Below, in pieces: positions 15,345 through 51,208 of a DNA stretch of 64,000 bases. This DNA comes from Spirochaetia bacterium. GTDB taxonomy: Bacteria; Spirochaetota; Spirochaetia; SP-2023. The DNA lies in assembly GCA_965225855.1 (NCBI GenBank), contig CBDDCK010000001.1, forward strand, positions 192,001 to 256,000, in the 5' to 3' direction. Each line of letters starts with the position of its first letter. The first letter of the stretch is position 1. The notes beneath the pieces were generated by a model, which worked only from the letters and a program-made list of their open reading frames with translations, was not told where the DNA came from and searched no databases. The position numbers and the translations under genes were made by a program.

Positions 15345-15578
15345 AGCAAGGCTATAAAGGCTTTAACAGCAACGGCTCACTTTGTGTTGGGAATTACAAG
15401 TGAGCAAATGATTTTTTGTAGCACTGCCCAAAAAATTTACCAGTAGCCTATTTACTAGCTACCACCCCACCCAATAACTGCCCCAGCCCAAACCAACAAA
15501 CCGAAATAGCCATACAAACGCACATACAAACGCAATTGGGCAATTGGTTTGCCGATGCCAATCTACAAGTCATCGCCT

Positions 15579-15721
15579 GTCTTGCTGCAATATAGCTTTC
15601 CGCCTTGGTATAAAGTCTTGTTCCGCATTGGTGCAATATAGCTTTCCCACTTCGATCAAGGCCTTGATCCGCATTGGAGTAAGGTATTGATCGAAGGCGG
15701 AAAGTTATATCATAGCAAGGC
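15579..15721. repeat. Fold-back (REP/MITE-like) palindromic unit within leader 1
   Basis: 28-bp imperfect terminal inverted repeats (15579-15606 / 15694-15721, 23/28 match) and inner palindrome gatcaaggccttgatc. Confidence 0.8.
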
Positions 15722-15739
15722 ACTAAAAACCATAAAAAT

Positions 15740-15995
15740 AAGCAGGCCATAGACTTGCTAAAACCCAACAACATCGTAAAAAGCCAAAACTGGGACGACC
15801 TCAAATAGGGCCAGTATGCCGATGCTTTGACCGTAGCCCACAGCGTCAATGCTGGCATTTTAGAAGTAATGGCACAATATCTGGCTATATATTGCGGGCC
15901 GATGACCCCAACTGCGATATATTGATACCGCCCAATGGTTGGCATGGTTGGGTTGGCACGGTTGGCATGGTTGGCGTTGTGCCTGCTATCGCATA
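15740..15995 (+). pseudogene. Decayed, internally deleted remnant of a phage Mu gpF/SPP1 gp7-like head morphogenesis gene, copy 1
   Basis: One frame reads QAIDLLKPNNIVKSQNWDDLK*GQYADALTVAHSVNAGILE; a shifted frame reads GYILRADDPNCDILIPPNGW...; matches recalled family motifs W.dl...eh..aFTVA and dDp.W...PPnGw.CRC. Confidence 0.65.
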
Positions 15996-16099
15996 CCCTC
16001 AAGACTTTTGATTGGCATGGATTTTGAACCACCTTACAACACTAACACACAAAAAAAGTGCCCAAACATAAAAAAACTTACAAAAAGCTTGTATAGGCC

Positions 16100-16126
16100 T
16101 TGACGCAACACCCCCCCTAGCAAAAT
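16100..16126 (+). promoter_or_regulatory. Putative sigma70 promoter with C7 tract in spacer (identical at 36122-36148 and 48919-48945)
   Basis: TTGACG -35, 15-bp spacer containing CCCCCCC, weak -10 CAAAAT; GGAGGT RBS before ATG. Confidence 0.45.
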
Positions 16127-16189
16127 GGGGATTTACAGACTAGCCCGTATGGGTTGGTTAATCTTTATCCATTGTTGGAGGTATTGCTT

Positions 16190-18382
16190 ATGTATAAGCT
16201 CAAACTACTTTTATTGCCAGTAGCCTGGCTACTGGCCTTTATGGCCTTGGCCTGCGCCCCACCCGATGACGATGCGCCGTCTTCTGGGCCGTCTGGGCCG
16301 ACTATCAAGAACGCCATGTACGATGTTGGCAAGGCTATCTTAACCGTACAAGGCACTAACTTAAGTCCTACAGAAGCCCAAATCCAAACTATCACGGTAG
16401 CTGGCTTAGCCTTAAGTTCCTATATTGCAGATGCCAAACCCACTGGGCCAAATAGTAACAATCTGGCAAAAGGTAAGTACCGTATGAAAAGCGATGGCAC
16501 AGCGCTTTGGCTGAAACTTAAAGATGAACATAAAGCTGCTCTTGAGGCCAAGGTGGGTAGCAATGGTCTAAAAAAAGGCTTGCTTAGCGTTAGCTCTGGT
16601 GCTTGGGCGGGTTTAGATACAGCCAAAGACTTAACCGTTAGTAATGTACCCGATAAGCAGTCTAAAGTATCCGATGACAATCAGCCATCTAAGCAAACTG
16701 AAGAAGAGTCGCGTAAGCAAACTGAAGACGAACAAGCTGAAGAAGTCGAAGAGCAGTCGCCTAAGCAAGCTAAAGCCGAACAAGTCGAACAAGCTGAAGA
16801 TAAGCAGTCGCCTGAACTACCCGAAGCCGAACAAACCGAAGAAGTCGAAGATAAGCAGTCTAAGACCGAAACCGAAGAGCAGTCGCCTAAAGCTGCAATT
16901 ACCCGTGCAAGCTACAATGTTATTTCAGGCTTCTTAGAGATTACAGGTACTAATTTACCAGCAGCAGTTGCAGACTGGGACTTTAGCAAATTGACGCTTG
17001 TATCCGGTGATGGTACTAATAGATACACATTACCCCGGCACTCAACAGGTCAAGAAAACAGAGCCATAGGTTTTGCAAATAGAAACACAGCCACAGGTTC
17101 TGAAGCAAGTGCAACAAGCTTATATATTGAGTTAAGGGGTAGTGTAAAAGCCAAAGCCGAGAAGATACTGGTTAACGATGGTGTTCGTGATGCTAATGGT
17201 GCATACAACCTGGAAGCAGCAGCAGGCTTTGCAGGTGGTAGCGCTGAAGACACAACCAACCCTATTACCGTTATTGGGTATACAGCCAGCATCACCAAAG
17301 TAGACTACGATGCTAATACAGGCGAGTTATTGATTCAGGGTATCAAGTTACCGAGAGCAGTTGCACGATGGGACTTTAGCAAATTGACGCTTGTATCCGG
17401 TGATGGTAAGAAGAGATACCCATTACCCCAGCACGCAACCGCAGGTGAAAACACAGCCACAGGTTCTAGTGCAGGTACAACCTACTTATATATTACTTTA
17501 AGCGGTAGTATAAAAGCGGAAGCCGAGAAGATACTGGTTAACGATGGTGTTCGTGATGCTAATGGTGCATACAACCTGGAAGCAGCAGCAGGCTTTGCAG
17601 GTGGTAGCGCTGAAGACACAACCAACCCGATTACCGTTAGTGGGTATGTAAGCCTGCTCGACTCCGTATTATACAGAACAACTGTAAGCCAGTTAATTAT
17701 TAAAGGTAGCAGGTTACCGACAGCAGTTGCAGACTGGGACTTTAGCAAATTGACGCTTGTATCCGGTGATGGTAAGAAGAAATACACATTACCACGGCAC
17801 TCAACTGTAGGCGCAAACAGAGCCACAGGTTCTAGTGCAAGTGCAACAGGCATATCTATTACTTTAAGCGGTAGTGTAAAAGCCAAAGTCGAGGCTATAC
17901 TGGTTAAGGTTGGTGATAGTGATAATAATGGTGCATACAACCTGGAAGCAGCAGCAGGATTTGCAGGTGGTAGCGCTGAAGACACAAGCAATAACCCGAT
18001 TACCGTTAGTGGGTATGTAAGCCAGATCACCAACTTAGTCTACAATTCACGTACAGGCGTGTTAACGATTAATGGTATTAATTTACCGTCAACAGTTGCA
18101 GAGTGGGACTTTAGCAAATTGACGCTTGTATCCGGTGATGGTAAGAAGAAATACACATTACCCCAGCACGCAATAGGTGAAAACACAGCCACAGGTTCTA
18201 GGGCATTTAACAACGTCTTATATATTACTTTAAGCGGTAATGTAAAAGTGGAAGCCGATGCTATACTTGATACGGTTGGTCTTCAAGATGCTGATGGTTA
18301 TTACAACCTTGAAGCAGCAGCAGGATTTGTAATGGGTAATCCAGCAGACACAAGCAATAACATTATTTATGTTAGTAATTAG
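16190..18382 (+). CDS. Modular surface lipoprotein, paralog 1 (signal-A-long acidic linker-B-B-B-B)
   Basis: GGAGGT RBS then MYKLKLLLLPVAWLLAFMALA-C lipobox; four WDFSKLTLVSGDG...YNLEAAAGF repeats. Confidence 0.9.
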   Translation: MYKLKLLLLPVAWLLAFMALACAPPDDDAPSSGPSGPTIKNAMYDVGKAILTVQGTNLSPTEAQIQTITVAGLALSSYIADAKPTGPNSNNLAKGKYRMKSDGTALWLKLKDEHKAALEAKVGSNGLKKGLLSVSSGAWAGLDTAKDLTVSNVPDKQSKVSDDNQPSKQTEEESRKQTEDEQAEEVEEQSPKQAKAEQVEQAEDKQSPELPEAEQTEEVEDKQSKTETEEQSPKAAITRASYNVISGFLEITGTNLPAAVADWDFSKLTLVSGDGTNRYTLPRHSTGQENRAIGFANRNTATGSEASATSLYIELRGSVKAKAEKILVNDGVRDANGAYNLEAAAGFAGGSAEDTTNPITVIGYTASITKVDYDANTGELLIQGIKLPRAVARWDFSKLTLVSGDGKKRYPLPQHATAGENTATGSSAGTTYLYITLSGSIKAEAEKILVNDGVRDANGAYNLEAAAGFAGGSAEDTTNPITVSGYVSLLDSVLYRTTVSQLIIKGSRLPTAVADWDFSKLTLVSGDGKKKYTLPRHSTVGANRATGSSASATGISITLSGSVKAKVEAILVKVGDSDNNGAYNLEAAAGFAGGSAEDTSNNPITVSGYVSQITNLVYNSRTGVLTINGINLPSTVAEWDFSKLTLVSGDGKKKYTLPQHAIGENTATGSRAFNNVLYITLSGNVKVEADAILDTVGLQDADGYYNLEAAAGFVMGNPADTSNNIIYVSN

Positions 18383-18445
18383 TTTGACTGCGCTTACCCA
18401 ATAGCTCTTAAGCTCTTATAGCAGCTAATTGAAAGCTGGCGGGCG

Positions 18446-18496
18446 GCCAACCAAGCAAAATGGTTTTGCAAATGCTGCAAGCAATGCTTGGTTGGC
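18446..18496 (+). terminator. Possible terminator stem-loop after paralog 1
   Basis: 12-bp inverted repeat gccaaccaagca / tgcttggttggc with a long loop. Confidence 0.35.
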
Positions 18497-18751
18497 TTAT
18501 TGTTAGCCCTTGGAGCATACTAGTGGGCAAGTAACTCAGAAAAGATTTAGAGTACACTTTATCATCTATTGAAAATTTGCCCTAAATAAAATTTGAAAAA
18601 CAAAGAATAAATACCTATCAAAAGTACTTGCAAGAATTAGCTGCATACTCTAATATTTTACTATACTTGCTAACGATGATTTTATATTTATTGAAAATTT
18701 TTAGAGTTGTCCTCGTAATTTTAGAGTAAGCTATATTTGAAAGGAGCTATT

Positions 18752-19345
18752 ATGGAAGCACAATTGGATTCGCTGGTTCGCAGCATAAAATCTGATGGAA
18801 TAGAAAGCGCGCGCAAGGAAGCGGCGGCTATTATAGCGCAAGCCAAAGAAGATGCCCGTAAGATTATTGCTAGTGCAGAAGAAAATGGTAGAGACGCTTT
18901 ATACAAAGTGGAAGAAGAAACGGCAAAGCTTAAAAAAACAGTTGAAGATTCTTTGCGCCAAGCTGCTCGTGATACAGTTTTAGCAGTACGAAAAGATTTA
19001 GAAGTATTGTTCTGCAAGCTTTTACAAGAAGATGTTGGTGAGATTTTAAATGGTGCCAGTTTAGAAAGAATTATTCTCGACTTAATGAAAAGTTGGACTG
19101 TCAGTGCCTCTTTTGACATACAGATATCCCCTGCAGATATGGAATTACTAGCTTCTAGCTTACTCAAGAAATTGAAAGATATAATGCAAGATGATAAATT
19201 TACAATTAAACCTTTGGAAGGAATGAAAGCAGGTTTACGCATTAGCTTTCGCGATGGTACCGCATATTTTGACTTTACAGATCAAGAAATTAGCAATATC
19301 TTGGCACAGCTCCTAAGTCCAAAATTTGCTTCATATTTATCTTAA
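18752..19345 (+). CDS. atpE: V-type ATP synthase subunit E
   Basis: MEAQLDSLVRSIKSDGI...A..II..A, DFTD.EI..IL; first gene of the V-ATPase operon. Confidence 0.85.
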   Translation: MEAQLDSLVRSIKSDGIESARKEAAAIIAQAKEDARKIIASAEENGRDALYKVEEETAKLKKTVEDSLRQAARDTVLAVRKDLEVLFCKLLQEDVGEILNGASLERIILDLMKSWTVSASFDIQISPADMELLASSLLKKLKDIMQDDKFTIKPLEGMKAGLRISFRDGTAYFDFTDQEISNILAQLLSPKFASYLS

Positions 19346-19364
19346 TTTTTGCAAGGTTGTTACT

Positions 19365-19907
19365 GTGGCTGAATATATCTATTTTTGTGTTTCGCTACCT
19401 TTTTTGTATTATGGCAAAGAGCCTCCTCTTAGTTCCCAGAAATTCCTTCAATTAGCCTCAACAAATTTATCATATGCTGATTTCCAAAAAATTGATGGTT
19501 TAGATTTTAGTTGTACCAATCAACGTATTCTTACATCGAGTTTCCTCCAAGATTATTACCGATGGGAAATTGCTTTGCGTAATCAAGTAATGCTGCAACG
19601 CTTGAAAACTGTTGAACAACGAAATGCAAAATTGCGCAATGGTGGGGTTGGTAGCACAATGCTAACAGCTTCTTTAGAGCAATTATTACAACAAGAACCA
19701 CTAGCGATAGAGCAAGGATTAGATTTGCTGCGTTGGAATAAACTGAATGAGCTATGTGGTGCTCGTTTATTCGATATGTTTTTTATTGCAATATATTTTT
19801 TGAAACTAAAGGTTTTAGAACGTGCTGTTATGTGGCAAAAAGAATTAGGTAAAGAACAATATGAAAAGGTTAGCAAAGAATTAGTAGAAGAGGTAGGAGG
19901 AGTGTAA
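19365..19907 (+). CDS. V-type ATPase subunit C-like protein (DUF2764 type)
   Basis: Y.YF..SLP.L N-terminus, E..LD.LRW, Y.LKLK.LER; position between E and A. Confidence 0.75.
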   Translation: MAEYIYFCVSLPFLYYGKEPPLSSQKFLQLASTNLSYADFQKIDGLDFSCTNQRILTSSFLQDYYRWEIALRNQVMLQRLKTVEQRNAKLRNGGVGSTMLTASLEQLLQQEPLAIEQGLDLLRWNKLNELCGARLFDMFFIAIYFLKLKVLERAVMWQKELGKEQYEKVSKELVEEVGGV

Positions 19908-21706
19908 TGACGCAAGGAAATATCCAGGGCGTAAACGGCAACATGGTTACTGTTGTATTCGATGGTAAAGTCTCTTTAAATGAAGTAGCGTATATTGCTG
20001 TAGGTGAAAGAGATGGTGAGGCTGTTTGCAAATTAAAAGCAGAAGTTATCCGCGTTCGTGGTAACTTAGCGCAGCTACAAGTTTTTGAACCAACAAAAGG
20101 GTTGCAAATTGGTAATACTGTAGAATTTACCGATGAATTATTGGCCGTAGAGTTAGGGCCTGGTTTGCTAACTCAAATTTACGATGGTCTACAAAATCCG
20201 TTGCCCGAATTAGCAGAGGCCGCTGGTCATTTTCTCGAAAGAGGTATATATCTTGATCCATTGCCACGCGATAAACAATGGGATTTTACGCCACAAATAG
20301 AGGTAGGAGATCGCATAACGGGTGGTGATACTCTGGGTACAGTTCCAGAAGGTTCATTCCAGCATCGCATCATGGTTCCTTTTAATATAATTACAGAGTG
20401 CGAAGTACTTTCCATAGCTAGATCCGGACGTTATACCGTAAAAGAAGATATTGCTGAAATTCAAGATAGTAATACAGGTAAAAAACATAAATTGACGATG
20501 ATGTTCACCTGGCCAGTAAAACGCCCGATCACCCGTTATACCGAGCGTCTGAAACCCACCAAGCCCATGGTAACTAAAGTCCGCTTAGTCGATACTTTTT
20601 TTCCTGTTGCTCTGGGCGGGACTTATTGTATCCCAGGGCCTTTTGGTGCTGGAAAAACCGTATTACAGCAAATTACTAGCCGCCACGCTGAAGTTGACAT
20701 TGTAATTATTGCCGCATGTGGTGAGCGTGCGGGTGAGGTGGTAGAAACTCTCGTAGAGTTTCCTGAATTGACCGATCCTCGAACCGGTCGCTCCTTAATG
20801 GAACGAACTATTATTATTTGCAATACTTCCTCCATGCCTGTTGCAGCGCGCGAAGCTTCTGTATATACCGGCGTAACTTTGGCTGAATATTTCCGACAAA
20901 TGGGACTCAATGTGTTATTGTTAGCTGACTCGACTTCTCGCTGGGCACAAGCTATGCGGGAAATGTCTGGCCGTCTTGAGGAAATTCCAGGGGAAGAGGC
21001 TTTCCCTGCTTATTTAGAATCTAGTATTGCGGCCTTTTACGAACGTGCTGGTATCGTGCGATTGAAGACAGGGGAAACTGGCTCTGTAACCATTGGTGGT
21101 TCTGTTTCACCCGCAGGCGGTAACTTTGAAGAACCGGTGACACAAGCTACATTAAAAGTAGTTGGGGCATTCCACGGTTTATCTCGTGAGCGTTCCGATG
21201 CTCGTAAATTCCCAGCAATTCACCCGATTGAATCTTGGAGTAAATACGAAGGAATTGTTCCAGAACGCAAAAGAAGCCATGCTAATCGGATATTGCACCG
21301 TGGATTTGAAGTTGAAGCGATGATGAAAGTGGTCGGTGAAGAAGGTACGTCTATGGCTGACTATGTCATTTATGAAAAAAGTGAGTTAATCGATTCGACT
21401 TATATTCAACAAAATTCGTTCCATCATGTAGATGCAGCGGTATCCCCTAAGCGTCAAAATTACGTTTTTGATTTGTTATTGCATTGTTTGCTCACAGAGT
21501 TTGATTTTGACAACAAAGATGAAGCACGGCAGTTTTTTAACAAATTGCGTATGTCATTGTTAGATATGAACGGTGTTCCATGGGAAGTTGACGACCAGCC
21601 AAGTGTCGAATTTAACAATTTAGAGAAAGAAGTTATCGATCTGGTAAAATCGAAAGGTAAAGGATATCAGCCAGGTGCAAAAAATATCTTGGAGGCAAAA
21701 GCATGA
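19907..21706 (+). CDS. atpA: V-type ATP synthase subunit A
   Basis: [10 protein letters not shown]-loop, [21 protein letters not shown]. Confidence 0.97.
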
Positions 21707-23016: not shown

Positions 23017-23046
23017 GTTCAAAAAGTCATTTAGGGAAATTTTGCC

Positions 23047-23685
23047 ATGACAAAAATTAAATTAACAAAAAATGAATTGAAAAAGCAGAAAGATGCTTTG
23101 AAAATGTTTAAGCGTTATTTGCCAACGTTACAGCTTAAAAAACAACAGCTGCAAGTAGAGATTGCTGGGGTACAAGAAAAAGCCAATGCGATTATGGCTG
23201 AATTAGACCGATTCCAAAAACGTCTGGATTCATGGGTTGCGCTATACGGCGAAGAATTTCCTTTTAAGCAGTATTTACAAATAAGAGAGTTAGTTACGGG
23301 GCTAGGAAACATTGCGGGTGTAGAGATTCCCGTATTTGAGAAAGTAACATTTGATATTTCAGAATATGATTTGTTTGAAACTTCTCCGTGGATTGATCAC
23401 GGTATAAAAGCAATTCAAGATACTATTTCTCTACGTTTACAGCACAATATTTACCAAGAACAAAAACGTCGCTTGGAAACTGAATTACGCGTAACTACTC
23501 AGCGGGTTAATCTTTTTGAAAAAGTAAAAATTCCCGAAACTAAGGCAAACATTAAGAAAATTGCTGTCTATATGGGCGATCAACAAACGGCAGCGGTTGT
23601 TTGTGGCAAAATTGCAAAAAAGAAATTAGAAGAGCGCAATGCGGCAGCAGATAAAGCTGCAAGTTCTAATAAGGGGGCTGCATGA
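23047..23685 (+). CDS. atpD: V-type ATP synthase subunit D
   Basis: LTKNELK...LPTLQLKKQQL, TTQRVNLFEKVKIP. Confidence 0.95.
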   Translation: MTKIKLTKNELKKQKDALKMFKRYLPTLQLKKQQLQVEIAGVQEKANAIMAELDRFQKRLDSWVALYGEEFPFKQYLQIRELVTGLGNIAGVEIPVFEKVTFDISEYDLFETSPWIDHGIKAIQDTISLRLQHNIYQEQKRRLETELRVTTQRVNLFEKVKIPETKANIKKIAVYMGDQQTAAVVCGKIAKKKLEERNAAADKAASSNKGAA

Positions 23686-25571: not shown

Positions 25572-25599
25572 AAACTTAAAATATAAAGGGAGTTTGCCA

Positions 25600-34729: not shown

Positions 34730-34960
34730 ATGGCAAGAGTTTGTGATATTTGTAATAAAGGAACTACTTTTGGTAATTCGGTCCCTCGGAAGGGCCTGCC
34801 TAAAAAAGAAGGTGGGGCAGGTCAGCATGTTGTCAAGCGTGTTCCTCGGAATTTTAAGCCCAATTTGTTAAAAATTAAAGGCATATATAAAGGAAAGATA
34901 CAGCGTATGAAGATTTGCACCCGTTGTTTAAAAGCTGGTTTGGTTGAAAAAGTTATTTAA
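34730..34960 (+). CDS. rpmB: 50S ribosomal protein L28 (Zn-ribbon form)
   Basis: MARVCDIC.K...FGN, RNFKPNL, ICTRCLK. Confidence 0.92.
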   Translation: MARVCDICNKGTTFGNSVPRKGLPKKEGGAGQHVVKRVPRNFKPNLLKIKGIYKGKIQRMKICTRCLKAGLVEKVI

Positions 34961-35250
34961 CATTATTTAACAAAGGGGAGGCCAACCAAAAAGGATTTTG
35001 ACGCAGAATTTTTAACGCAGAATTTTTAACAATATGGGATATAAATTGTTGCGTCTTTTTTGGTTTTATCTAATTTCTATAGAAATTAGAATTATTGAGT
35101 CTTGCCCAACACCTTTTTATATCGTCTCCATAGCAGATAAATAATTAAAAAGCAACAATAGCCCCACCCCCAACCAACACCCCAAAGCAACAAACCCGAT
35201 CAACATTGTATTGCCAAAATTGTTTGCTTGAAGAGCCCCGACTAAATAGT

Positions 35251-35295
35251 TGATCCGGGACATGATAACTGAACGGGATAAGACGCGATAACTCG
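35251..35295 (+). repeat. Left terminal inverted repeat
   Basis: TGATCCGGGACATGATAACTGAACGGGATAAGACGCGATAACTCG versus reverse complement of right end TGATGCAGGACGTGATAACTTTGTGCCATCGGACATGATAACTCG. Confidence 0.75.
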
Positions 35296-35410
35296 GGATT
35301 TTTTTGGGGACAAATGGAAGGTAAAAATTGACTTACTTTCCAATGAGTCATTGTCGGCAGTAATTGGGCAACAATATGCTTTCAAAATATCATGGTAACG
35401 GGCCACGGTC

Positions 35411-35457
35411 TCAAAAAGCTAGTAAGGTTTTGACTGAAAACCTTACTAGCTTTTTGA
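35411..35457. terminator. Perfect 21-bp-stem hairpin, probable bidirectional intrinsic terminator
   Basis: tcaaaaagctagtaaggtttt-gactg-aaaaccttactagctttttga. Confidence 0.75.
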
Positions 35458-35496
35458 TTGGCAACCTAGGGATTTTCCAACAAACCCAAACCAACC

Positions 35497-36211
35497 AGCC
35501 CAAAGCAACAAACCGAAATAGCCATACAAACGCAATTGGGCAATTGGTTTGCCGATGAGAATCTACAAGTCATCGCCTGTCTTGCTACAATATAGCTTTC
35601 CACATTGGTATAAAGTATTGTTCCGCATTGGAGTAATGCCTTACTCCGCATTGGTGCAATATAACTTTCCCACTTCGATCAAGGCCTTGATCCGCATTGG
35701 AGTAAGGTATTGATCGAAGGCGGAGAGATGTATCATAGCAAGGCACTAAAAACCATAAAAATAAGCAGGCCATAGACTTGCTAAAACCCAACAACATCGT
35801 AGAAAGCCAAAACTGGGACGACCTCAAATAGGGCCAGTATGCCGATGCTTTGACCTTAGCCCACAGCGTCAATGCTGGCATTTTAGACGACTTGCACAAT
35901 ATCTGGCTATATATTGCGGGCCGATGACCCCAACTGCGATATATTGATACCGCCCAATGGTTGGCATGGTTGGGTTGGCACGGTTGGCATGGTTGGCGTT
36001 GTGCTTGCTATCGCATAGCCTTAAGCCTTTTGATTGGCATGGATTTTGAACCACCTTACAACACTAACACACAAAAAAAGTGCCCAAACATAAAAAAACT
36101 TACAAAAAGCTTGTATAGGCCTTGACGCAACACCCCCCCTAGCAAAATGGGGATTTACAGACTAGCCCGTATGGGTTGGTTAATCTTTATCCATTGTTGG
36201 AGGTATTGCTT
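35497..36211 (+). repeat. Conserved leader, copy 2
   Basis: Near-identical to leaders 1 and 3. Confidence 0.95.
35766..36017 (+). pseudogene. Mu gpF-like head morphogenesis gene remnant, copy 2
   Basis: QAIDLLKPNNIVESQNWDDLK*GQYADALTLAHSVNAGILDDLHNI, then (shifted frame) ILRADDPNCDILIPPNGW. Confidence 0.65.
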
Positions 36212-38617
36212 ATGTATAAGCTCAAACTACTTTTATTGCCAGTAGCCTGGCTACTGGCCTTTATGGCCTTGGCCTGCGCCCCACCCGATGACGATGATCG
36301 ATCTTCTGGGCCGTCTAAGCCGACTATCAATAACGCCATCTACGACTTTGCTACGGCGCTGTTAACCGTACAAGGTACTGACTTAAGTCCTACAGAAGCC
36401 CAAATCCAAACCATCGTAGTAGATGGCGTAGCCTTAAGTTCCTATACTGCAGATGCCAAACCCACTGGGCCAGATAATAGCAATCTGGCAAAAGGTAAGT
36501 ACCGTATGAAAAGCGATGGCACAGCGATTTGGCTTAGACTTACCGATCCACATAAAGCTGCTCTTCAGACCAAGGTGGGTATGAATACCAATGGTCTAAA
36601 AAAAGGGTTGCTTACTAGCTCTGGTGCTTGGGCGGGTTTAAATACAGCCAAAGACTTAACCGTTAGGAATGTACCCGATAAGCAGTCTAAAGTATCCGAT
36701 GACAATCAGCCATCTAAGCAAACTGAAGACGAACAAGCTGAACAAGTCGAACAAGCTGAAGAGCAGTCGCCTGAAGCTGCAATTACCCGTGCAAGCTACC
36801 ATGTTGGCACGGCGCTGCTAACTGTACAAGGTTCTAACTTAAGTCCTACAACTGCGACCCAAGCCCAAATCCAAACCATCAAAGTATATGACCTAGTCTT
36901 AAATTCTTATACTGCAGATGGCACAGCCACTGGGGCAGATAGTAGCAGTCTTGCAAAAGGTAAGTACCGTATTAAAAGCGATGGCACAGCGCTTTGGCTT
37001 TACCTTACCGATCAACATAAAACTACTCTGAATGGCAAGGACGGTATGGATAGCAATGGTCTAAAAGATGGGTTGCTTACTAGCACTGGTAGTTGGGCGG
37101 GTTTAGATACAGCCAAAGCCTTAACCGTTAGTGGAAACCCCGCAATTACCGGTGCAAGCTACCATGTTGGCACGGCGCTGTTAACCTTGCAAGGTACTCT
37201 CTTAGCTAGTGCTACCCAAGCCCAAATCCAAACCATCACGGTAGATGGGGTAGCTTTAGATTCCTATACTGCCACAGCCACTGGGCCAGATAGTCGCGGT
37301 CTTGCAAAAGGTAAGTACCGTATTAAAAGCGATGGCACAGCGCTTTGGCTTTACCTTACCGATCGACATAAAACTACTCTGAATGGCAAGACAGGTATGG
37401 ATAGCAATGGTCTAAAAGATGGGTTGCTTAGCGTTGGCACTGGTACTTGGGCGGGTTTAAATACAGCCAAAGCCTTGGCCGTTAGTGGAAACCCCGAAGC
37501 TGCAATTACCGGTGCAAGCTACGATGTTGGCACAGCTCTGCTAACCGTACGAGGTTCTAACTTAAATGCTACCAGTGCGACCCAAGCGCAAATCCAAACC
37601 ATCGTGGTAGATGGCTTAGCCTTAAGTTCCTATATTGCAGATGAGGATGCCACTGGGCCAGATAGTCGCGGTCTTGCAAAAGGTAAGTACCGCCTGCATA
37701 GCGCTGGCACAGCGCTTTGGCTTTACCTTACCGATCAACATAAAGCTACTCTGAATGGCAAGACAGGTATGGATAGCAATGGTCTAAAAGATGGGTTGCT
37801 TAGCGTTGGCACTGGTACTTGGGCGGGTTTAAATACAGCCAAAGCCTTGGCCGTTAGTGGAAACCCCGCACCCGCAATTACCAGTGCAACCTACAATTTT
37901 ACTACAGGCGTGTTAGTGATTACAGGTGTCAATTTACCGTCAAGAGTGGATCGCTGGGACTTTAGCAAATTGAGGTTTGTCGCAGGTAATGGTCGTACTA
38001 AGAGTCAACCATTATTAGAGCACAACCCAACAGCTTATGATATAAACAGAGCCACAGGTTCTGCAGCAAGTGCAACAAGCTTAACGATTACTTTAAAGGG
38101 TACTGAACAAAGGAAAGCCGATAATATACTGGTTAAGAATGGTAAAAGAGATGCTGATGGTGCATACAACCTGGAAGCAGCAGCAGGATTTGCAGGTGGT
38201 AGGGCTGAAGACACAAGCAATAACCCGATTACCGTTAGTGGGTATGTAGTCAAAATCAACACCGTACGCTACTATGCTGATGATGGCGAGTTAAATATTT
38301 CTGGTATTAATTTACCGACAACAGTTGCAGAGTGGGACTTTAGCAAATTGACGCTTGTATCCGGTGATGGTAAGAAGAAATACACATTACCCCGGCACGC
38401 AATAGGTGAAAACACAGCCACAGGTTCTGGTGCAACTAGAAACATCTTACAGATTACTTTAAGCGGTAGTGTAAAAGCGGAAGCCAATAAGATACTGGTT
38501 AAGAATGGTGTTCGTGATGCTAATGGTGCATACAACCTTGAAGCAGCAGCAGGATTTGTAATTGGTGGTTCAGCAGACCCAACCACTGCTATTAAAGTTT
38601 TTGGTGTTGGTAAGTAA
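36212..38617 (+). CDS. Modular surface lipoprotein, paralog 2 (signal-A-short linker-A-A-A-B-B)
   Basis: Same signal peptide and lipobox as paralog 1; four LAKGKYR...GTA(L/I)WL modules and two WDFSKL modules. Confidence 0.9.
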   Translation: MYKLKLLLLPVAWLLAFMALACAPPDDDDRSSGPSKPTINNAIYDFATALLTVQGTDLSPTEAQIQTIVVDGVALSSYTADAKPTGPDNSNLAKGKYRMKSDGTAIWLRLTDPHKAALQTKVGMNTNGLKKGLLTSSGAWAGLNTAKDLTVRNVPDKQSKVSDDNQPSKQTEDEQAEQVEQAEEQSPEAAITRASYHVGTALLTVQGSNLSPTTATQAQIQTIKVYDLVLNSYTADGTATGADSSSLAKGKYRIKSDGTALWLYLTDQHKTTLNGKDGMDSNGLKDGLLTSTGSWAGLDTAKALTVSGNPAITGASYHVGTALLTLQGTLLASATQAQIQTITVDGVALDSYTATATGPDSRGLAKGKYRIKSDGTALWLYLTDRHKTTLNGKTGMDSNGLKDGLLSVGTGTWAGLNTAKALAVSGNPEAAITGASYDVGTALLTVRGSNLNATSATQAQIQTIVVDGLALSSYIADEDATGPDSRGLAKGKYRLHSAGTALWLYLTDQHKATLNGKTGMDSNGLKDGLLSVGTGTWAGLNTAKALAVSGNPAPAITSATYNFTTGVLVITGVNLPSRVDRWDFSKLRFVAGNGRTKSQPLLEHNPTAYDINRATGSAASATSLTITLKGTEQRKADNILVKNGKRDADGAYNLEAAAGFAGGRAEDTSNNPITVSGYVVKINTVRYYADDGELNISGINLPTTVAEWDFSKLTLVSGDGKKKYTLPRHAIGENTATGSGATRNILQITLSGSVKAEANKILVKNGVRDANGAYNLEAAAGFVIGGSADPTTAIKVFGVGK

Positions 38618-38744: not shown

Positions 38745-38754
38745 GCCAATTACA

Positions 38755-38851
38755 GCCTTGGTATAAAGTATTGTTCCGCATTGGTGCAATACATCTTTCC
38801 GCCTTGGATCAAGGCCTTGATCCAAGGCGGAAAGCTATATCATAGCAAGGC
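38755..38851. repeat. Downstream direct-repeat copy of the leader fold-back unit, containing a perfect 40-bp palindrome (38795-38834)
   Basis: ctttccgccttggatcaagg|ccttgatccaaggcggaaag; flanks match the leader unit (ttggtataaagtattgttccgcattggtgcaata ... tatcatagcaaggc). Confidence 0.85.
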
Positions 38852-38909
38852 TAGAAAAATTTATTAAGGCTGCTTTTGCCAATTATAGCCTTGGTAAGTA
38901 GAAAAAAAT

Positions 38910-38954
38910 CGAGTTATCATGTCCGATGGCACAAAGTTATCACGTCCTGCATCA
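38910..38954 (-). repeat. Right terminal inverted repeat, copy after paralog 2
   Basis: cgagttatcatgtccgatggcacaaagttatcacgtcctgcatca; homology with the 51164-51208 copy stops exactly at the terminal CA. Confidence 0.8.
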
Positions 38955-39952: not shown

Positions 39953-39958
39953 TGATAT

Positions 39959-43437: not shown

Positions 43438-43464
43438 TTGCTGCAGCTAATTAGAAATATTGTA

Positions 43465-45585: not shown

Positions 45586-45603
45586 AAGGAGCGTTTATTT
45601 TTT

Positions 45604-46398
45604 ATGGAAGGAATCATTATTGTCGGTTATGGCCGCATGGGTAAGGAAATAGAACAGCAAGCTGCCCAAATGGGTATTAGCGTTTGTGCGGTGGCCGACA
45701 ACCGCAGAGAGCTTGAACAACTGGGAGTTCAATGGCAAGTTGATAGGCAGCTAAAGGCAGGGCGTATTGCCATAGAGTTTACCGGTGGCACAGCTGCTAT
45801 AGAAAATTTGGAATATTTATTAAAACATGATATTCCCATCGTTTGTGGCTCCACCCCGTGGAATGAACAAAGCCATGCAGAGATACTAAAATTACGCAGC
45901 GAACGCCAAGGCTATTTAATGTTGAGTAGTAATTATAGTATTGGGGTCAATATCTTTTGGCGTGTAGTGCGTGAAACCAGCCGCTTGATGAACCGTTTCC
46001 CTCATTACGATTTGGGCATTTACGAACAGCATCACAACAAAAAGGCCGATTCCCCTTCCGGTACGGCGGTAAGTGCTGGCAATATTGTCTTGCAAGAGGT
46101 GGAGCGCAAAATCCGCTTACTCTATGGCAAACCGCAAGATGCGCAAGGCCATGAGCGCCCTATTGATGCTGCTGAATTGCAAGTAAGCTCCCAGCGTTTG
46201 GGGCATATTTGGGGAGTGCACCAACTACTGTGCGATAGCCCAGAAGACTCTATCACTATTTCACATCAAGCGCACAATCGCACAGGGCTAGCACGCGGTA
46301 CGCTGATTGCTGCCCAGTTTTTACAGCAGCAAGTGGATAATAACAAACCGGGCTTTTTTTCTATGGGCGAATTGATGGATTATTTTTTACAATCTTAG
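45604..46398 (+). CDS. dapB: 4-hydroxy-tetrahydrodipicolinate reductase
   Basis: GYGRMG, EFT, NYSIGV, E.HHNKKADSPSGTA, H.AHNR...ARG. Confidence 0.93.
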   Translation: MEGIIIVGYGRMGKEIEQQAAQMGISVCAVADNRRELEQLGVQWQVDRQLKAGRIAIEFTGGTAAIENLEYLLKHDIPIVCGSTPWNEQSHAEILKLRSERQGYLMLSSNYSIGVNIFWRVVRETSRLMNRFPHYDLGIYEQHHNKKADSPSGTAVSAGNIVLQEVERKIRLLYGKPQDAQGHERPIDAAELQVSSQRLGHIWGVHQLLCDSPEDSITISHQAHNRTGLARGTLIAAQFLQQQVDNNKPGFFSMGELMDYFLQS

Positions 46399-46479
46399 CT
46401 CTTTTATGCAGAATTAACGAAAAAAGGCAAGCAAGGCTTGGCCAAAGTTTATCTTGTTACAAAAAATTCTTGTTAGTTA

Positions 46480-46609
46480 TTAAGAAATTCTGTTGTTGGG
46501 TATTAAGAAACTCTCTTGTTGGGCATTAAGAAACTCTCTTGTTGGGCATTAAGAAACTCTCTTGTTGGGCATTAAGAAATTCTGTTGTTGGGCATTAAGA
46601 GACTCTCTT
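46480..46609. repeat. Tandem 23-bp repeat, ~5.6 copies (ttaagaaactctcttgttgggca)
   Basis: Units start at 46480, 46503, 46526, 46549, 46572, 46595; no spacers. Confidence 0.92.
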
Positions 46610-46686
46610 AATTGTTATGCCAACGTTCTGGCAATAATTATTCAAAGCTATTACTAAAAAAAGTTTGTAGCCTTAATAAATTTTTC

Positions 46687-46717
46687 CAGCCTTGGTATTT
46701 TCTCCATACCAAGGCTG
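46687..46717 (-). terminator. Hairpin downstream of the silent cassette, homologous to the paralog terminators
   Basis: cagccttggtat-tttctcc-ataccaaggctg. Confidence 0.6.
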
Positions 46718-46756
46718 CAATAGGTCAATGCAAGCGTTGCAACAACCAAACCTTAC

Positions 46757-47014
46757 TTACCAACTTGTAACTTTAATACTAGTGGTTGGGTCTTTTGTGC
46801 TACCACCTGCAAATCCTGCTGCTGCTTCAAGGTTGCCAGCCTTAACCAGTATCTTATCGGCTTTGGCTTTTACAGTACCGCTTAAAGTAATAATTAAGTA
46901 GGTTGCACTTGCTTCAGAACCTGTGGCTTTGTTTGCACCTGCAGTTGAGTGCTGTGGTAATGTGAATCTCTTAGTACGATCACCGGATACAAGCGTCAAT
47001 TTGCTAAAGTCCCA
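46757..47014 (-). pseudogene. Silent inverted 3' cassette of the modular lipoprotein family (C-terminal part of a B module plus stop)
   Basis: Reads WDFSKLTLVSGDRTKRFTLPQHSTAGANKATGSEASATYLIITLSGTVKAKADKILVKAGNLEAAAGFAGGSTKDPTTSIKVTSW*; preceded by an in-frame TAA; no RBS or leader. Confidence 0.88.
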
Positions 47015-47033
47015 GACTTATTTCTAATAAGAG

Positions 47034-47951
47034 TTATAAAGTATTTAACTCGTCCAGGTAGGGAATAGAAGGAGCTGCCCCTACCCGCCCGACTGCCAGA
47101 GCTGCGGCACGGCTACCTGCCTTTAAAGCCTCAAAAAAATCTTCATCTTTTAGGATTGCAGCAGTATAGTAACCAGCAAATGTATCGCCCGCCGCGGTGG
47201 TATCCACTAACGGAACAGGATAAGCAAGCAGGGAATAGTCCTGTTGCCTATAGCTGCCCCAAACCCCATCTGCGCCTAAAGTTATCACCAAACGAGAATT
47301 TGGCATACGTCTTTTTAATAAATTAAAAGCAGTTTCAACCGAAGTCGCCTCCGCCAAGTCCATGGCTTCAGTTTCATTTACCAACAAAGTGTGAAGCTGG
47401 GTATAATCAATTTTTTGTAGGTCTGGACAATAGGGTGCTGCATTAAAAATCACCGGAATATGGTGCGTATGGGCACAGTCTAATAGAGCGGGTAAGCCGT
47501 TCATTTCATTTTGACATACTACAGCCGAATAACAATCAGGCGGAATTGTTGCAGATGTAAATAGCTGTCTTACAGCAGTATCCGTCCAAGAATGATTGGC
47601 ACCGCTATACAATACGATGCTGTTCTCGACTGTGCTGTTCTGGCCTTCACGCCCAACCTGAATCATTGCATGCCCTGTATGGTAACCTTCCCAACATTGG
47701 GTAAAAGTACAATCTACCCCATTATCTTCCAAAAAGGTACGCAACCACAGGCCATCACTGCCAATACGCCCGGCATGGCACACCGACATTCCGGCCCGAG
47801 ACATCGCTAGAGATTGGTTTAAACCTTTACCACCCGGATGCACGGCATAGCCTCCTGGCTCAATTGCAGCAAGCGTCTCACCAGGACGAACTATATGCTC
47901 TAACTGATACACATGATCTATATTCAAAGAACCAAAGGATAACACAGGCAT
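47034..47951 (-). CDS. rbsK: Ribokinase (PfkB family)
   Basis: GSLNIDHV, PGGKGLNQS.A, NETEA, DTTAAGDTF.G; GGAG RBS before MPVLSFGS. Confidence 0.85.
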   Translation of the reverse strand: MPVLSFGSLNIDHVYQLEHIVRPGETLAAIEPGGYAVHPGGKGLNQSLAMSRAGMSVCHAGRIGSDGLWLRTFLEDNGVDCTFTQCWEGYHTGHAMIQVGREGQNSTVENSIVLYSGANHSWTDTAVRQLFTSATIPPDCYSAVVCQNEMNGLPALLDCAHTHHIPVIFNAAPYCPDLQKIDYTQLHTLLVNETEAMDLAEATSVETAFNLLKRRMPNSRLVITLGADGVWGSYRQQDYSLLAYPVPLVDTTAAGDTFAGYYTAAILKDEDFFEALKAGSRAAALAVGRVGAAPSIPYLDELNTL

Positions 47952-48064
47952 AATACTTTCTATCTTCTCCAATTGATCTTGCCATGCAAGCCAAAACCAA
48001 ACCCAAACCAAACAACCAATCAATTCCGGTTGCTGAGCAACGGTCGCAGCCATTTTACCAACTT

Positions 48065-48269
48065 GTACGGCGGGCCACAACATCTGCGGTAGCGTTCAAA
48101 GCCAGCAATTAAAATATTACGGCCACTAGCCTCAATAATAAAAATTACGTCAGCCACAATAAGAAGTTACATTGAGAATATCTAAAGCATTTCCCAGCAA
48201 TTGCCAGATCAACACCCCCTGTAACGTCCCAACGATTTTGACCGAACCACCAGCTAAACTGGTACCAAC
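48065..48269 (-). pseudogene. 3' remnant of a sugar ABC transporter permease (RbsC-like)
   Basis: Minus-strand frame VGTSLAGGSVKIVGTLQGVLIWQLLGNALDILNVTSY matches the GGTSL.GG.G.I.GTL.GVLI...L.N.L.ILNV.SY permease motif; frameshifted afterwards; truncated at leader 3. Confidence 0.65.
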
Positions 48270-48274
48270 CAACA

Positions 48275-48296
48275 CCCCACCCCCCAAACCCACCCC
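48275..48296 (-). other. Canonical G-quadruplex motif G4-T-G3-TTT-G6-T-G4
   Basis: Plus strand cccc a cccccc aaa ccc a cccc. Confidence 0.75.
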
Positions 48297-48585
48297 ACCT
48301 AATAACTACCCCAGCCCCAAAGCAACAAACCCAAAGCAACAAACCGAAATAGCCATACAAACGCACATACAAACGCAATTGGGCAATTGGTTTGCCGATG
48401 CCAATCTACAAGTCATCGCCTGCTTTACCACAATACACCTTTCCGGCTTGGTATAAAGTATTATTCCAACTTGGTGCAATATAACTTTCCGCCTTCGATC
48501 AAGGCCTTGATCCGCATTGGAGTAAGGTATTGATCGAAGGTGGAGAGATGTATCATAGCAAGGCACTAAAAACCATAAAAATAAG

Positions 48586-48814
48586 CAAGCCATAGACTTG
48601 CTAAAACCCAACAACATCGTAAAAAGCCAAAACTGGGACGACCTCAAATAGGGCCAGTATGCCGATGCTTTGACCTTAGCCCACAGCGTCAATGCTGGCA
48701 TTTTAGACGACTTGCACAATATCTGGCTATATATTGCGGGCCTATGACCCCAACTGGGATATATTGATACCACCCAATGGTTGGCATGGTTGGCGTTGCG
48801 CCTGCTATCGCATA
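48586..48814 (+). pseudogene. Mu gpF-like head morphogenesis gene remnant, copy 3
   Basis: WDDLK*GQYADALTLAHSVNAGILDDLH, then ILRAYDPNWDILIPPNGWHGWRCAC. Confidence 0.68.
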
Positions 48815-49008
48815 GCCTTAAGCCTTTTGATTGGCATGGATTTTGAACCACCTTACAACACTAACACACAAAAAAAGTGCCCAAACATAAAAAAACTTAC
48901 AAAAAGCTTGTATAGGCCTTGACGCAACACCCCCCCTAGCAAAATGGGGATTTACAGACTAGCCCGTATGGGTTGGCCAATCTTTATCCCTTGTTGGAGG
49001 TATTGCTT

Positions 49009-51039
49009 ATGTATAAGCTCAAACTACTTTTATTGCCTGTAGCATTGCTACTGGCCTTTATGGCCTTGGCCTGCGCACCACCCGATGACGATGATCGATC
49101 TTCTGGGCCATCTTCTGGGCCGTCTATCAATAATGCCATCTACGACTTTGCTACGGCTCTGTTAACCGTACAAGGTACTGACTTAAGTCCTACAGAAGCG
49201 CAAATCCAAACTATCACGGTAGCTGGCCTAGCCTTAAGTTCCTATATTGCAGATGCCAAACCCACTGGGCCAAATAGTAACAGTCTTGCAAAAGGTAAGT
49301 ACCGTATGAAAAGCGATGGCACAGCGCTTTGGCTGAAACTTAAAGATGAACATAAAGCTGCTCTTGAGGCCAAGGTGGGTAGCAATGGTCTAAAAAAAGG
49401 GTTGCTTACTAGCTCTGGTGCTTGGGCGGGTTTAGATACAGCCAAAGACTTAACCGTTAGCAATATACCCGATAAGCAGTCGCCTAAGCAAGCTGAACAA
49501 GCTGAACAAGCTGAAGAAGAGTCGCCTAAGCAACCTAAAGACGAACAAGTCGAACAAGCTGAAGAGGAGTCGCCTAAGCAACCTAAAGCCGAAGAGCAGT
49601 CGCCTAAAGCCGCAATTACCGGTGCAAGCTACAATGTTGGCACGGCGCTGTTAACCTTGCAAGGTACTGACTTAGGTAGTGCGACCCAAGCCCAAATCCA
49701 AACCATCGTAGTAGATGGGGTAGCCTTAAGTTCCTATACTGCAGATGACGATGCCACTGGGCCAGATAGTCGCGGTCTTGCAAAAGGTAAGTACCGCCTA
49801 CATAGCGCTGGCACAGCGCTTTGGCTTTACCTTACCGATCAACATAAAACTACTCTGAATGGCAAGACAGGTATGGATAGCAATGGTCTAAAAGATGGGT
49901 TGCTTACTAGCACTGGTACTTGGGCGGGTTTAGATACAGCCAAAGGCTTGGCCGTTAGTGGAAACCCCGCAATTACCCGTGCAACTTACCATGTTGGCAC
50001 GGCTCTGTTAACTGTACAAGGTACTGACTTAGCTAGTGCGACCCAAGCGCAAATCCAAACCATCGTGGTAGATGGCTTAGCCTTAAGTTCCTATATTGCA
50101 GATGAGGATGCCACTGGGGCAGATAGTCGCGGTCTTGCAAAAGGTAAGTACCGCCTGCATAGCGCTGGCACAGCCATTTGGCTTTACCTTACCGATCGAC
50201 ATAAAACTACTCTGAATGGCAAGACAGGTATGGATACCAATGGTAGAAAAGTCGGGTTGCTTGCTAGCACTGGTGCTTGGGCAGGTTTAGATACAGCCAA
50301 AGACTTGGCCGTTATTGGAAACCCACCCGCAATTACCAGTGCAACCTACAATGTTGCTACAAGTGTGTTAGTGATTACAGGTGTCAATTTACCAAAATCA
50401 GTGTATGGCTGGGACTTTAGCAAATTGAGGTTTGTCGCAGGTGATGGCCGTAAGAGTCAACCATTATTCAAGCACAGCACAACCGGTAAAGGTATACACA
50501 GATCCATAGGTTCTGCAGCAAGTGCAACAAGCTTAACGATTACTTTAAGCGGTAGTATTCAAAAAGGGAACGCCAATAAGATATTGGTTAAGAATGGTGA
50601 TAGTGATGATGCTGGTGCATACAACCTGGAAGCAGCAGCAGGATTTGCAGGTGGTAGCGCTGAAGACCTAACCAACCCTATTACCGTTAGTGGGTATGTA
50701 ATTTCTATCACTGGAGCATACTACAGTCCTAATAATGGCAATTTATTGATTCAGGGTACTAATTTACCGAGAACAATTGCAGAGTGGGACTTTAGCAAAT
50801 TGACGCTTGTATCCGGTGATGGTAGTAAGAGATACAAATTACCCCAGCACTCAACCACAGGTGAAAACAGAGCCGAAGGTTCTAATGCAAGTGCAATAAG
50901 CGTATTGATTACTTTAAGCGGTAGTGTAAAAGCCAAAGTCGATGCTATACTGGTTAAGAATGGCAACCTGGAAGCAGCAGCAGGATTTGTACCTGGTAGC
51001 GCAGAAGACCTAACCAATAAGATTATAGTTTTTAATTGA
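49009..51039 (+). CDS. Modular surface lipoprotein, paralog 3 (signal-A-linker-A-A-B-B)
   Basis: Same lipobox; three A and two B modules; last B module lacks the D..D..GAY segment. Confidence 0.9.
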   Translation: MYKLKLLLLPVALLLAFMALACAPPDDDDRSSGPSSGPSINNAIYDFATALLTVQGTDLSPTEAQIQTITVAGLALSSYIADAKPTGPNSNSLAKGKYRMKSDGTALWLKLKDEHKAALEAKVGSNGLKKGLLTSSGAWAGLDTAKDLTVSNIPDKQSPKQAEQAEQAEEESPKQPKDEQVEQAEEESPKQPKAEEQSPKAAITGASYNVGTALLTLQGTDLGSATQAQIQTIVVDGVALSSYTADDDATGPDSRGLAKGKYRLHSAGTALWLYLTDQHKTTLNGKTGMDSNGLKDGLLTSTGTWAGLDTAKGLAVSGNPAITRATYHVGTALLTVQGTDLASATQAQIQTIVVDGLALSSYIADEDATGADSRGLAKGKYRLHSAGTAIWLYLTDRHKTTLNGKTGMDTNGRKVGLLASTGAWAGLDTAKDLAVIGNPPAITSATYNVATSVLVITGVNLPKSVYGWDFSKLRFVAGDGRKSQPLFKHSTTGKGIHRSIGSAASATSLTITLSGSIQKGNANKILVKNGDSDDAGAYNLEAAAGFAGGSAEDLTNPITVSGYVISITGAYYSPNNGNLLIQGTNLPRTIAEWDFSKLTLVSGDGSKRYKLPQHSTTGENRAEGSNASAISVLITLSGSVKAKVDAILVKNGNLEAAAGFVPGSAEDLTNKIIVFN

Positions 51040-51093
51040 TGTTGGTAAGTAAGGTTTGGTTATTGCTGTAAGCAAGGCTTGCATTGGCCAATT

Positions 51094-51129
51094 GCAGCCT
51101 TGGTAAGTTTTTTTATCAAGGCTGCTTTT
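51094..51129 (+). terminator. Intrinsic terminator after paralog 3
   Basis: gcagccttggtaa...ttatcaaggctgctttt. Confidence 0.7.
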
Positions 51130-51163
51130 ACCAAGTTATAGCCATTCTGGAAAGTAGAAGAGT

Positions 51164-51208
51164 CGAGTTATCACGTCCGATGGCACAAAGTTATCACGTC
51201 CTGCATCA
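51164..51208 (-). repeat. Right terminal inverted repeat, copy after paralog 3
   Basis: cgagttatcacgtccgatggcacaaagttatcacgtcctgcatca, one mismatch to 38910-38954. Confidence 0.8.

Follow-up and report, generated by a model that had tools for sequence, protein, structure and literature searches.

The window analysed here, a stretch of 64,000 nucleotides (nt) from the genome of a Spirochaetia bacterium (C1:192001-256000 of assembly G000, the genome under study), contains three lipoprotein genes that belong to a mosaic family of 109 copies. With a probability of roughly 0.6, this family was dispersed in the manner of mini-Mu elements between the ends of a transposable prophage, is shuffled by recombination and is switched through a poly-C tract in its promoters, and its products likely form a variable surface. 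The phage origin of the ends is well supported; that it applies to all copies, that the promoters switch and that the proteins act at the surface are more cautious proposals. It is possible, although doubtful, that the bacterium has domesticated the prophage ends as an amplification vehicle for surface variation, with recombination among ~105 loci building new variants and rearranging the chromosome, and the poly-C tract silencing an archive until one copy slips into an ON state.

Family size and distribution

A preliminary description of the window, made from its sequence, proposed three dispersed loci encoding modular lipoproteins. The three genes are real, but they are 3 of 109 copies genome-wide: a query consisting of the ribosome-binding site (RBS) and signal-peptide region gave 118 matches in G000, 109 of them at 83% identity or higher. 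The assembly comprises 2.71 Mb in five contigs and is 94% complete with 0.68% contamination; some of its contig breaks fall at family genes or prophage copies. Copies are dispersed at spacings of a few kilobases to ~120 kb, show no evident strand bias relative to GC skew, and, for the 102 scored with a B module, span 205 kb, or 7.6% of the genome. Open reading frames (ORFs) longer than 300 amino acids (aa) are found in 105 of the 109; the other four are reduced to short relics, and a frameshift is present in at least one further copy.

The usual order of parts is a signal peptide, a module designated A, an acidic linker, zero to four further A modules and two to four copies of a second module, B. 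No two proteins in the family are identical, and distinct sequences make up 240 of the 252 A modules and 248 of the 255 B modules. The diversified modular repertoire that had been proposed is thus borne out, and recombination among the copies is likewise supported. The leader of ~700 bp that is shared in the window has a more limited distribution. Its long form is common to 16 of the 109 copies, and ~190 nt are common to nearly all. Two divergent, larger genes with mixed A and B modules and a 17-nt promoter, C5_353763 and C5_571748, may represent the ancestral state.

Silent cassettes, the other component of the original proposal, are scarce. The genome-wide count of loci and fragments that it called for returned 109 loci, few silent fragments and no cassette array, as just 12 of 519 module matches in G000 lie outside catalogued genes. 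Of these, one is a remnant in the window (46766-47014), the sole such element there, one lies at a contig end, a B-only lipoprotein accounts for three, a frameshifted copy for four, and A fragments for the last three. Nor is a design resembling that of vls or tprK supported, with promoter-like sequence of its own at every one of the 109 copies.

Beyond G000, the family was not found in 40 relatives, three of the same genus, by protein and B-profile searches, and neither were its promoter and leader in five relatives. A scan of JGI metagenomes gave no relative of the family, and the ESM Atlas gave unnamed clusters at 0.91 but no structure. In public sequencing runs, contig depth over the family is ~50-120 times single-copy depth in run X1 (which, like X2 and X3, may be the source sample) and ~20-40 times in X4; an excess is also seen in X5, which belongs with X4 to another study. 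This multi-copy depth in public runs means that assembly errors do not account for the number of copies.

Several other loci are related in part or are repetitive in their own right. In a 978-aa lipoprotein (C5:206266-209202), ~800 aa of N/Q/S/T/P repeats are joined by a single B module; the B-only lipoprotein P0086 (413 aa; C4:210836-211933) has a different signal peptide. Two internally repetitive blocks, C5:1074335-1094687 (20 kb) and C5:662641-675947 (13 kb), are unrelated to the family.

Phage ends and the resident prophage

Repeat boundaries, located by counting 16-mers over the genome, reveal a left and a right motif that recur and together form imperfect inverted repeats. They have TGA...TCA tips and two GACRYGATAACT sites 23 nt apart, which are predicted to bind a transposase. 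There are 62 end tips in G000, and they form 17 inward-facing pairs less than 12 kb apart (one of them R-R). All 17 pairs hold exactly one family gene and none is gene-free. A perfect 6-bp target duplication flanks five of these bracketed units, and the flanks of the remaining 12 match over 0-2 bp. Counted by gene, 40 of 109 copies have at least one phage end and 18 have both; depending on the method, 12-14 have the left end only and 8-10 the right end only. The exact binding-site motif occurs 103 times, 95 times within 1.5 kb of a family gene, seven times at prophage ends and once elsewhere.

The transposon-like ends noted in the preliminary description are thus real, and they match those of a resident Mu/B3-like prophage of ~36 kb (C5:~1257677-1293766). 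Its genes encode a terminase, portal, repressor, transposase, transposition ATPase (phrog_296), head, sheath, tape measure and baseplate. The transposase is intact (586 aa; phrog_310, E 1.8e-70) and is the sole rve-family transposase match in G000. Approximately 250 nt at the left end of the prophage and 60-350 nt at the right match the gene-flanking ends at 77-99% identity. Phage B3 and Leptospira prophages have 6-bp duplications, many with TG-CA ends, and lengths of 35-39 kb (PMC8705779, in part). It is well supported, from comparison of the ends, that those of the family derive from the prophage and that at least five units transposed in the past, and it is likely that the prophage transposase, acting in trans, made the duplication-flanked insertions. 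A further three left flanks match the right flanks of different loci, against ~0.3 expected from composition, an expectation that would rise under target bias; these matches hint at exchange between units. Additional partial prophage copies lie at the end of C4 and the start of C3, and a 649-nt left end is found at C5:2030137.

One relative, G002, has a related prophage with a transposase 55% identical to that of G000 and two ends of the same architecture. An end pattern derived from both genomes matches 49 times in G000, twice in G002 (at its prophage ends), once in G001 (two matches in the control) and not at all in G003 or G004; as it was fitted to G000 and G002, the two matches in G002 are expected from the way it was made, and the informative outcome is that no others occur. 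The exact end motif was not found in three relatives. Gene order upstream of the V-ATPase operon differs in the relative locus L021. Adjoining the left end of the G002 prophage (G002:C1:257900-275700; L110, L111) are ~12 tandem paralogous proteins of 200-300 aa, of two or three types, with no match to the lipoprotein family. None of the 55 spacers of a CRISPR array in G000 (C5:898800-902600) matches the family or the prophage; two of them match fully elsewhere, at C4:45188 and C5:1987539.

Loci in the window

The three window genes are all on the + strand and encode a common signal peptide that ends in LACAPPDD. Their architectures (A-linker-B4, A-linker-A3-B2 and A-linker-A2-B2) and their leaders, 95-97% identical across 660-683 aligned columns, agree with the preliminary description, as does the presence of a G-quadruplex (G4) motif, canonical at one locus and relaxed at the others.

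15465..16189, + strand: long leader of locus 1, a non-coding repeat patchwork with no phage end detected
15465-15489, - strand: relaxed G4-like tract of locus 1
16100..16126, + strand: promoter-like site of locus 1, TTGACG, 15-nt spacer with C7 (16111-16117), CAAAAT; predicted OFF spacing
16190..18382, + strand: lipoprotein 1, 730 aa (signal peptide, A, acidic/Gln linker, four B)
35162..36211, + strand: upstream region and long leader of locus 2
35162-35197, - strand: relaxed G4-like tract of locus 2
35251..35343, + strand: prophage left-end sequence of locus 2, two GACRYGATAACT sites 23 nt apart and a variant tip; 91% identical to the prophage left end over 35262-35343
36122-36148, + strand: promoter of locus 2, TTGACG (36122-36127), C7 (36133-36139), CAAAAT (36143-36148); 15-nt spacer
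36212..38617, + strand: lipoprotein 2, 801 aa (signal peptide, A, linker, three A, two B)
38892..38954, - strand: prophage right-end sequence of locus 2, 95% identity over 63 nt, tip ...TGCATCA
46480..46594, - strand: 23-bp tandem array of five units, of the kind typically found just 3' of family genes
46766..47014, - strand: 3' remnant of a family gene, promoter-less, with about three-quarters of one B module and a stop, then the usual tail
48275..49008, + strand: long leader of locus 3
48275-48296, - strand: canonical G4 motif of locus 3
48919-48945, + strand: promoter of locus 3, TTGACG (48919-48924), C7 (48930-48936), CAAAAT (48940-48945); 15-nt spacer
49009..51039, + strand: lipoprotein 3, 676 aa (signal peptide, A, linker, two A, two B)
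51138..51208, - strand: prophage right-end sequence of locus 3, 92% identity over 73 nt

Locus 2 is bracketed by ends at 35251 and 38954 (3704 nt). At locus 3 a left phage end was not found, and at locus 1 neither end was. The first 1644 nt of lipoprotein 1, with 667 nt upstream, are identical to copy C5_2029369, and the first 1112 nt of lipoprotein 2 to copy C5_878958. None of the three proteins could be credibly assigned to a Pfam family; a CrtC match on lipoprotein 2 has no passing stretch and is likely a repeat artefact.

The neighbours of the window loci are housekeeping and flagellar genes. The best relatives of the V-ATPase B subunit are titled Spirochaetia, and the closest named relative of FliD, at 66%, is from Candidatus Haliotispira prima, an abalone associate. 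A short ORF at 34731-34960 presumably encodes ribosomal protein L28, and a 1349-aa ORF at 7471-11520 has a long low-complexity C-terminus and no Pfam match. Palindromic repeat units of ~46 bp occur in leaders and tails in the window (15582-15730, 35581-35750, 38750-38852 and 48425-48570), and also in dispersed genomic clusters and within the prophage. Tandem arrays of the 23-bp unit, with 2-34 units each, are found at 23 places in G000, 21 of which are within 300 nt downstream of family genes.

Promoter and poly-C spacer

All 109 copies have a TTGAC(G/T) element, a spacer with a run of C and a hexamer of the CAAAAT/CACAAT type, located upstream of a GGAGG RBS. The spacer is 15 nt (C7) in 85 copies, 14 nt (C6) in 20 and 13 nt in one, and the 15-nt spacing is kept across several promoter sequence variants. 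Host-like spacers are present in only three copies: C5_1508714 (16 nt, C8), C5_803129 (17 nt, C9) and C5_1904475 (17 nt, C6 plus an insertion). Among 931 non-family upstream regions of the host, TTGACN...TANNNT pairs peak at 16 nt (34 pairs) and 17 nt (45 pairs), with 15 nt at background (4 observed, 5.4 shuffled); the calibration is rough, because spacings of 13, 14, 18 and 19 nt (15-20 pairs each) are also above shuffled counts.

For copies with 14- or 15-nt spacers, the best promoter of 16-18-nt spacing found within 200 nt by matrices trained on 130 host sites has a median score of 2.7 (maxima 10.9 and 9.0), while shuffled sequence gives a median of 3.7 and a 95th percentile of 9.3. The three copies with 16- or 17-nt spacers score 11.2-12.0, close to the host 5th percentile of 11.3. 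Divergent leader homologues that have not been amplified have spacers of 16-17 nt and C runs that are shorter or interrupted. On the basis of spacing, C6 and C7 are predicted to be OFF states, and C8, C9 or an equivalent insertion ON states. Tracts range from C5 to C9, and five groups of otherwise identical promoters differ solely in the number of C residues. Family promoters account for 85 of the 136 C7/G7 runs in the genome and two of the three longer ones. Among run contigs, C6 alleles occur in X1 and X2, and X4 has a C5 allele. The ON state could in addition pass from one copy to another by conversion between promoters.

A diverged version of the promoter, with a hairpin-like 5' palindrome, the RBS and the first codons, precedes unrelated genes at C5:1104103, 1106192, 1940235 and 1713800, in most cases with a 16-nt spacer.

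Mosaicism and selection

Exact matches of at least 20 nt to other copies tile a median of 94% of each gene in a median of 34 pieces, and each gene has a median of six partners with which it shares 60 nt or more. The correlation of distances between modules of the same gene is 0.10-0.16. Linkage was computed for two sets of modules, the first A and the last B. In the first A modules, r2 is 0.29 for sites up to 5 nt apart and drops to 0.02-0.04 beyond 15-40 nt, where all four gametes are present at more than 80% of site pairs; decay in the last B modules is similar. Five proteins from ENA are likewise mosaic relative to their best matches in G000, and P0060 is identical over ~290 aa before it diverges. 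P0054, P0060 and P0073 are listed with the same longest contig, of 55,004 nt, and have best G000 matches hundreds of kilobases apart, hinting at rearrangement or at exchange between strains. Joints between window loci in run contigs were not taken as rearrangement, since paralogue contigs produce such joints.

In the common class of B modules (172 modules), piN/piS is 1.69 (95% bootstrap over columns 1.32-2.18), an estimate from which ~28 of 255 modules without the anchor motif were excluded and which gene conversion and codon bias can distort. The early part of the module was expected to be the most variable, and piN is indeed 0.35 in the first 28 aa and 0.20 in the remainder (227 modules). 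The value for the signal peptide is 0.51 (0.17-1.81). Near-invariant amino acid columns with varying synonymous sites number 29 of 117 in B and 49 of 109 in A.

G000 has recA and two tyrosine recombinases, and no Y1/RAYT transposase was found there. A diversity-generating retroelement was rejected as the source of variation because there is no reverse transcriptase (RVT_1) match in G000, at 94% completeness.

Modules A and B

The B-module profile matched 449 proteins among 1.84 billion representatives. The top matches outside the family are mostly multi-repeat proteins of 1,000-5,500 aa, with up to 13 full-length matches per protein at ~45-50 bits each. DUF4347 was found in four of 16 B homologues scanned, and other domains present were Big_9, cadherin-like, Calx-beta, RTX or T9SS; one named homologue is WP_284381991.1 of Litoribrevibacter albus. 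These matches substantiate the previously noted likeness of B to the repeats of giant secreted adhesins. B is also present in shorter ENA proteins with lipoprotein-like starts, and a full-length module A was matched in only 3 of 146 new proteins from the B-profile search. Alignment of A with B is confined to the first 23 columns (hhalign probability 64%).

The model of an A and B pair has a mean pLDDT of 63; in its B half, most residues reach 70-90. Its best structural match is the immunoglobulin (Ig)-like domain of SbsC (Z 6.9, rmsd 2.8, 93 residues aligned). IPT/TIG-type domains match at Z ~5, with a warning from the tool that the arrangement may simply be a common one, and a Foldseek search yielded nothing at E 0.001 or better. 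On three strands of B, the first, the second and a later one, invariant columns alternate with highly variable ones, in agreement with the alternation of fixed and hypervariable blocks noted earlier. The WDF and YNL blocks are fixed (WDFSKL and NLEAAAGF in all eight window B modules). The pattern suggests that module B presents one variable, exposed sheet of an Ig-like sandwich. Lipidation and surface exposure are predicted from the signal peptide.

Proposed mechanism and alternatives

A four-step model is the best, and probable, explanation of these features. Mini-Mu transposition, with the prophage transposase acting in trans, would seed new loci; the 69 copies without ends would have lost them later or have spread by recombination. 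RecA-type gene conversion and the gain and loss of modules would then reshuffle the copies. Slippage of the poly-C tract to C8 or C9 would switch one or a few copies ON. Finally, the exposed face of B would be diversified under selection by a host, a phage or a binding partner.

Several observations weigh against this model. As to dispersal, a phage end was not detected at 69 of the 109 copies, and 12 of the 17 bracketed units, window locus 2 included, have no duplication. In the intact-looking prophage copy the left tip is degenerate, a duplication is lacking, and the tape-measure and baseplate genes are split; current transposition of the prophage or of the units finds no support in the sequence. 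As to the switch, host spacings other than 16 and 17 nt are also enriched, no +C allele is present among the alleles listed in four runs and no C6 allele in X4 or X5 (single-copy tract alleles fall below the 1% listing threshold), and tract contractions outnumber expansions 21 to 2. The genome also encodes MutS and MutL, and a C7 tract is short for rapid slippage, which may make switching slow. As to selection, piN/piS is 1.28 (0.99-1.69) in the second class of B modules (55 modules) and 0.98 and 0.84 in first and later A modules, and the distortions of this ratio mentioned above apply. The fold is based on a modest model, to judge by its pLDDT and best Z score.

It may instead be, although this is unlikely, that the few correctly spaced loci are permanent expression sites to which the ~106 others donate by one-way conversion initiated at G4 motifs, with slippage incidental. 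The rarity of host-like spacing, the fine-scale mosaicism and the longest identical tracts, which begin in the leader and extend into the gene, would all fit such a system. So would the distribution of G4 motifs: 34 of 77 relaxed motifs in the genome lie no more than 1.5 kb from a family gene, and 33 of these are on its upstream side and on the antisense strand. However, that count overstates independence, because the motifs belong to a few homologous types, and only 4 of 13 canonical motifs are near the family; a role for G4 in its recombination is possible. Moreover, all copies are mosaic, not just the three, and promoter, RBS, signal peptide and open frames are kept, whereas vls and pilS archives are promoter-less (PMC4534519, in part).

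Next in plausibility, and also unlikely, is a co-expressed or regulated adhesin repertoire, in which an activator, A-tract bending or supercoiling enables the 15-nt promoters and many variants are displayed for broader binding, with no ON/OFF switch. The conservation of 15 nt as the majority spacing across promoter variants, the nearly complete set of intact frames, the homology of B to giant adhesin-like repeats and the presence of mismatch repair genes are consistent with this explanation. However, host promoters have no excess at 15 nt, the median copy has no alternative 16-18-nt promoter above shuffled background, and the divergent leader homologues carry the longer spacers and shorter or interrupted C runs.

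A selfish bloom of mini-Mu units is improbable. The units would parasitise the prophage transposase with the lipoprotein gene as a silenced passenger, diversified by drift and ectopic conversion, which would suit the phage ends and target duplications, the apparently OFF state of most promoters, the failure to find the family in 40 relatives and the piN/piS near 1 of A modules. A passenger gene is harder to reconcile with long ORFs in 105 copies and few frameshifts, with near-invariant columns in both modules where synonymous sites vary, with piN/piS above 1 in B, or with the lack of any gene-free unit among the 17 pairs. Inflation of the family by collapsed strains or misassembly, with homopolymer errors in the C tracts, is very improbable and largely refuted: the five contigs are sometimes broken at family genes or prophage copies and X1-X3 may be the source sample, but contamination is low, frames are intact, copies sit in unique flanks with target duplications, the depth excess recurs in another study and run contigs contain C6 alleles.

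Under the favoured model of mini-Mu dispersal, shuffling and promoter gating, C5_803129, C5_1508714 and C5_1904475 (3 of 109) would dominate expression in the sampled population. The route by which large variable-antigen repertoires are dispersed is rarely visible, and here the ends, the duplications and a helper transposase are found in one genome. If the model is correct, a natural mini-Mu system carrying a host gene would be a new route for recruiting phages to host functions. On the more doubtful reading of domesticated prophage ends, a phage would have built an antigenic-variation system in a spirochete only distantly related to Borrelia and Treponema. Were the host an invertebrate, the question would arise of what selects variation without antibodies. 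Another possible use of the ends and the transposase is in the genetic manipulation of spirochetes.

Comparison with known systems

As far as the literature was searched, the combination of mini-Mu dispersal, shuffling and promoter gating is unreported, although its separate kinds are known. A search that covered few subscription papers turned up no account of a lipoprotein family amplified by natural mini-Mu units, and the available part of PMC8987985, on mobile-element recruitment, contains no such case.

The alternation of conserved and variable blocks, the segmental mosaics and the G-rich upstream tracts, comparable to the pilE G4, resemble Borrelia vls, Treponema tprK and Neisseria pilE/pilS. 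The family nevertheless stands apart from these systems, because every copy keeps a promoter-like site and an RBS; there is no single expression site with promoter-less donors, and no sequence homology was detected or is expected. The archive copies of vls and pilS are, by contrast, without promoters (PMC4534519, in part).

Closer in predicted switch logic are Mycoplasma hyorhinis Vlp and M. mycoides Vmm (PMC10502178, in part) and M. gallisepticum VlhA (PMC6258824, in part). Like the present family, these share a near-identical leader and signal peptide across a lipoprotein family, a promoter with a simple repeat for each gene, and size variation via internal repeats. However, the tract here is poly-C and short (6-9), where those of the Mycoplasma families are poly-A, TA or GAA, and ~105 dispersed copies with unrelated, putatively Ig-like modules and phage ends are found in a spirochete with MutS and MutL. 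The comparison with Vlp and VlhA is one of analogy, not membership, with no such Pfam family in the three window proteins.

Spread of host-interaction families through a small genome by a mobile element of ~90 copies is known from the Orientia tsutsugamushi RAGE (PMC10732058, in part). That element belongs to the integrative and conjugative elements (ICEs) and is mostly degraded, whereas the present units have transposable-phage ends and a single, mostly intact cargo gene. The giant DUF4347, Big_9 and cadherin-like proteins contain an unnamed repeat of ~120 aa homologous to module B; here, that repeat is found in lipoproteins of 440-1000 aa and is paired with module A.

Mini-Mu and mini-D3112 units are engineered tools with cargo between phage ends (PMC8705779, in part). 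The family units resemble them in having cargo between inward-facing L and R ends, repeated predicted transposase sites, TG...CA termini, a 6-bp duplication (5 of 17) and no internal transposase. The ~36-kb helper, with its DDE transposase and ATPase and a terminase-portal block set apart from the other structural genes, is similar to B3-type and Leptospira prophages. Unlike the engineered units, the putative ones described here are natural, occur in tens and carry one host-type lipoprotein gene each.

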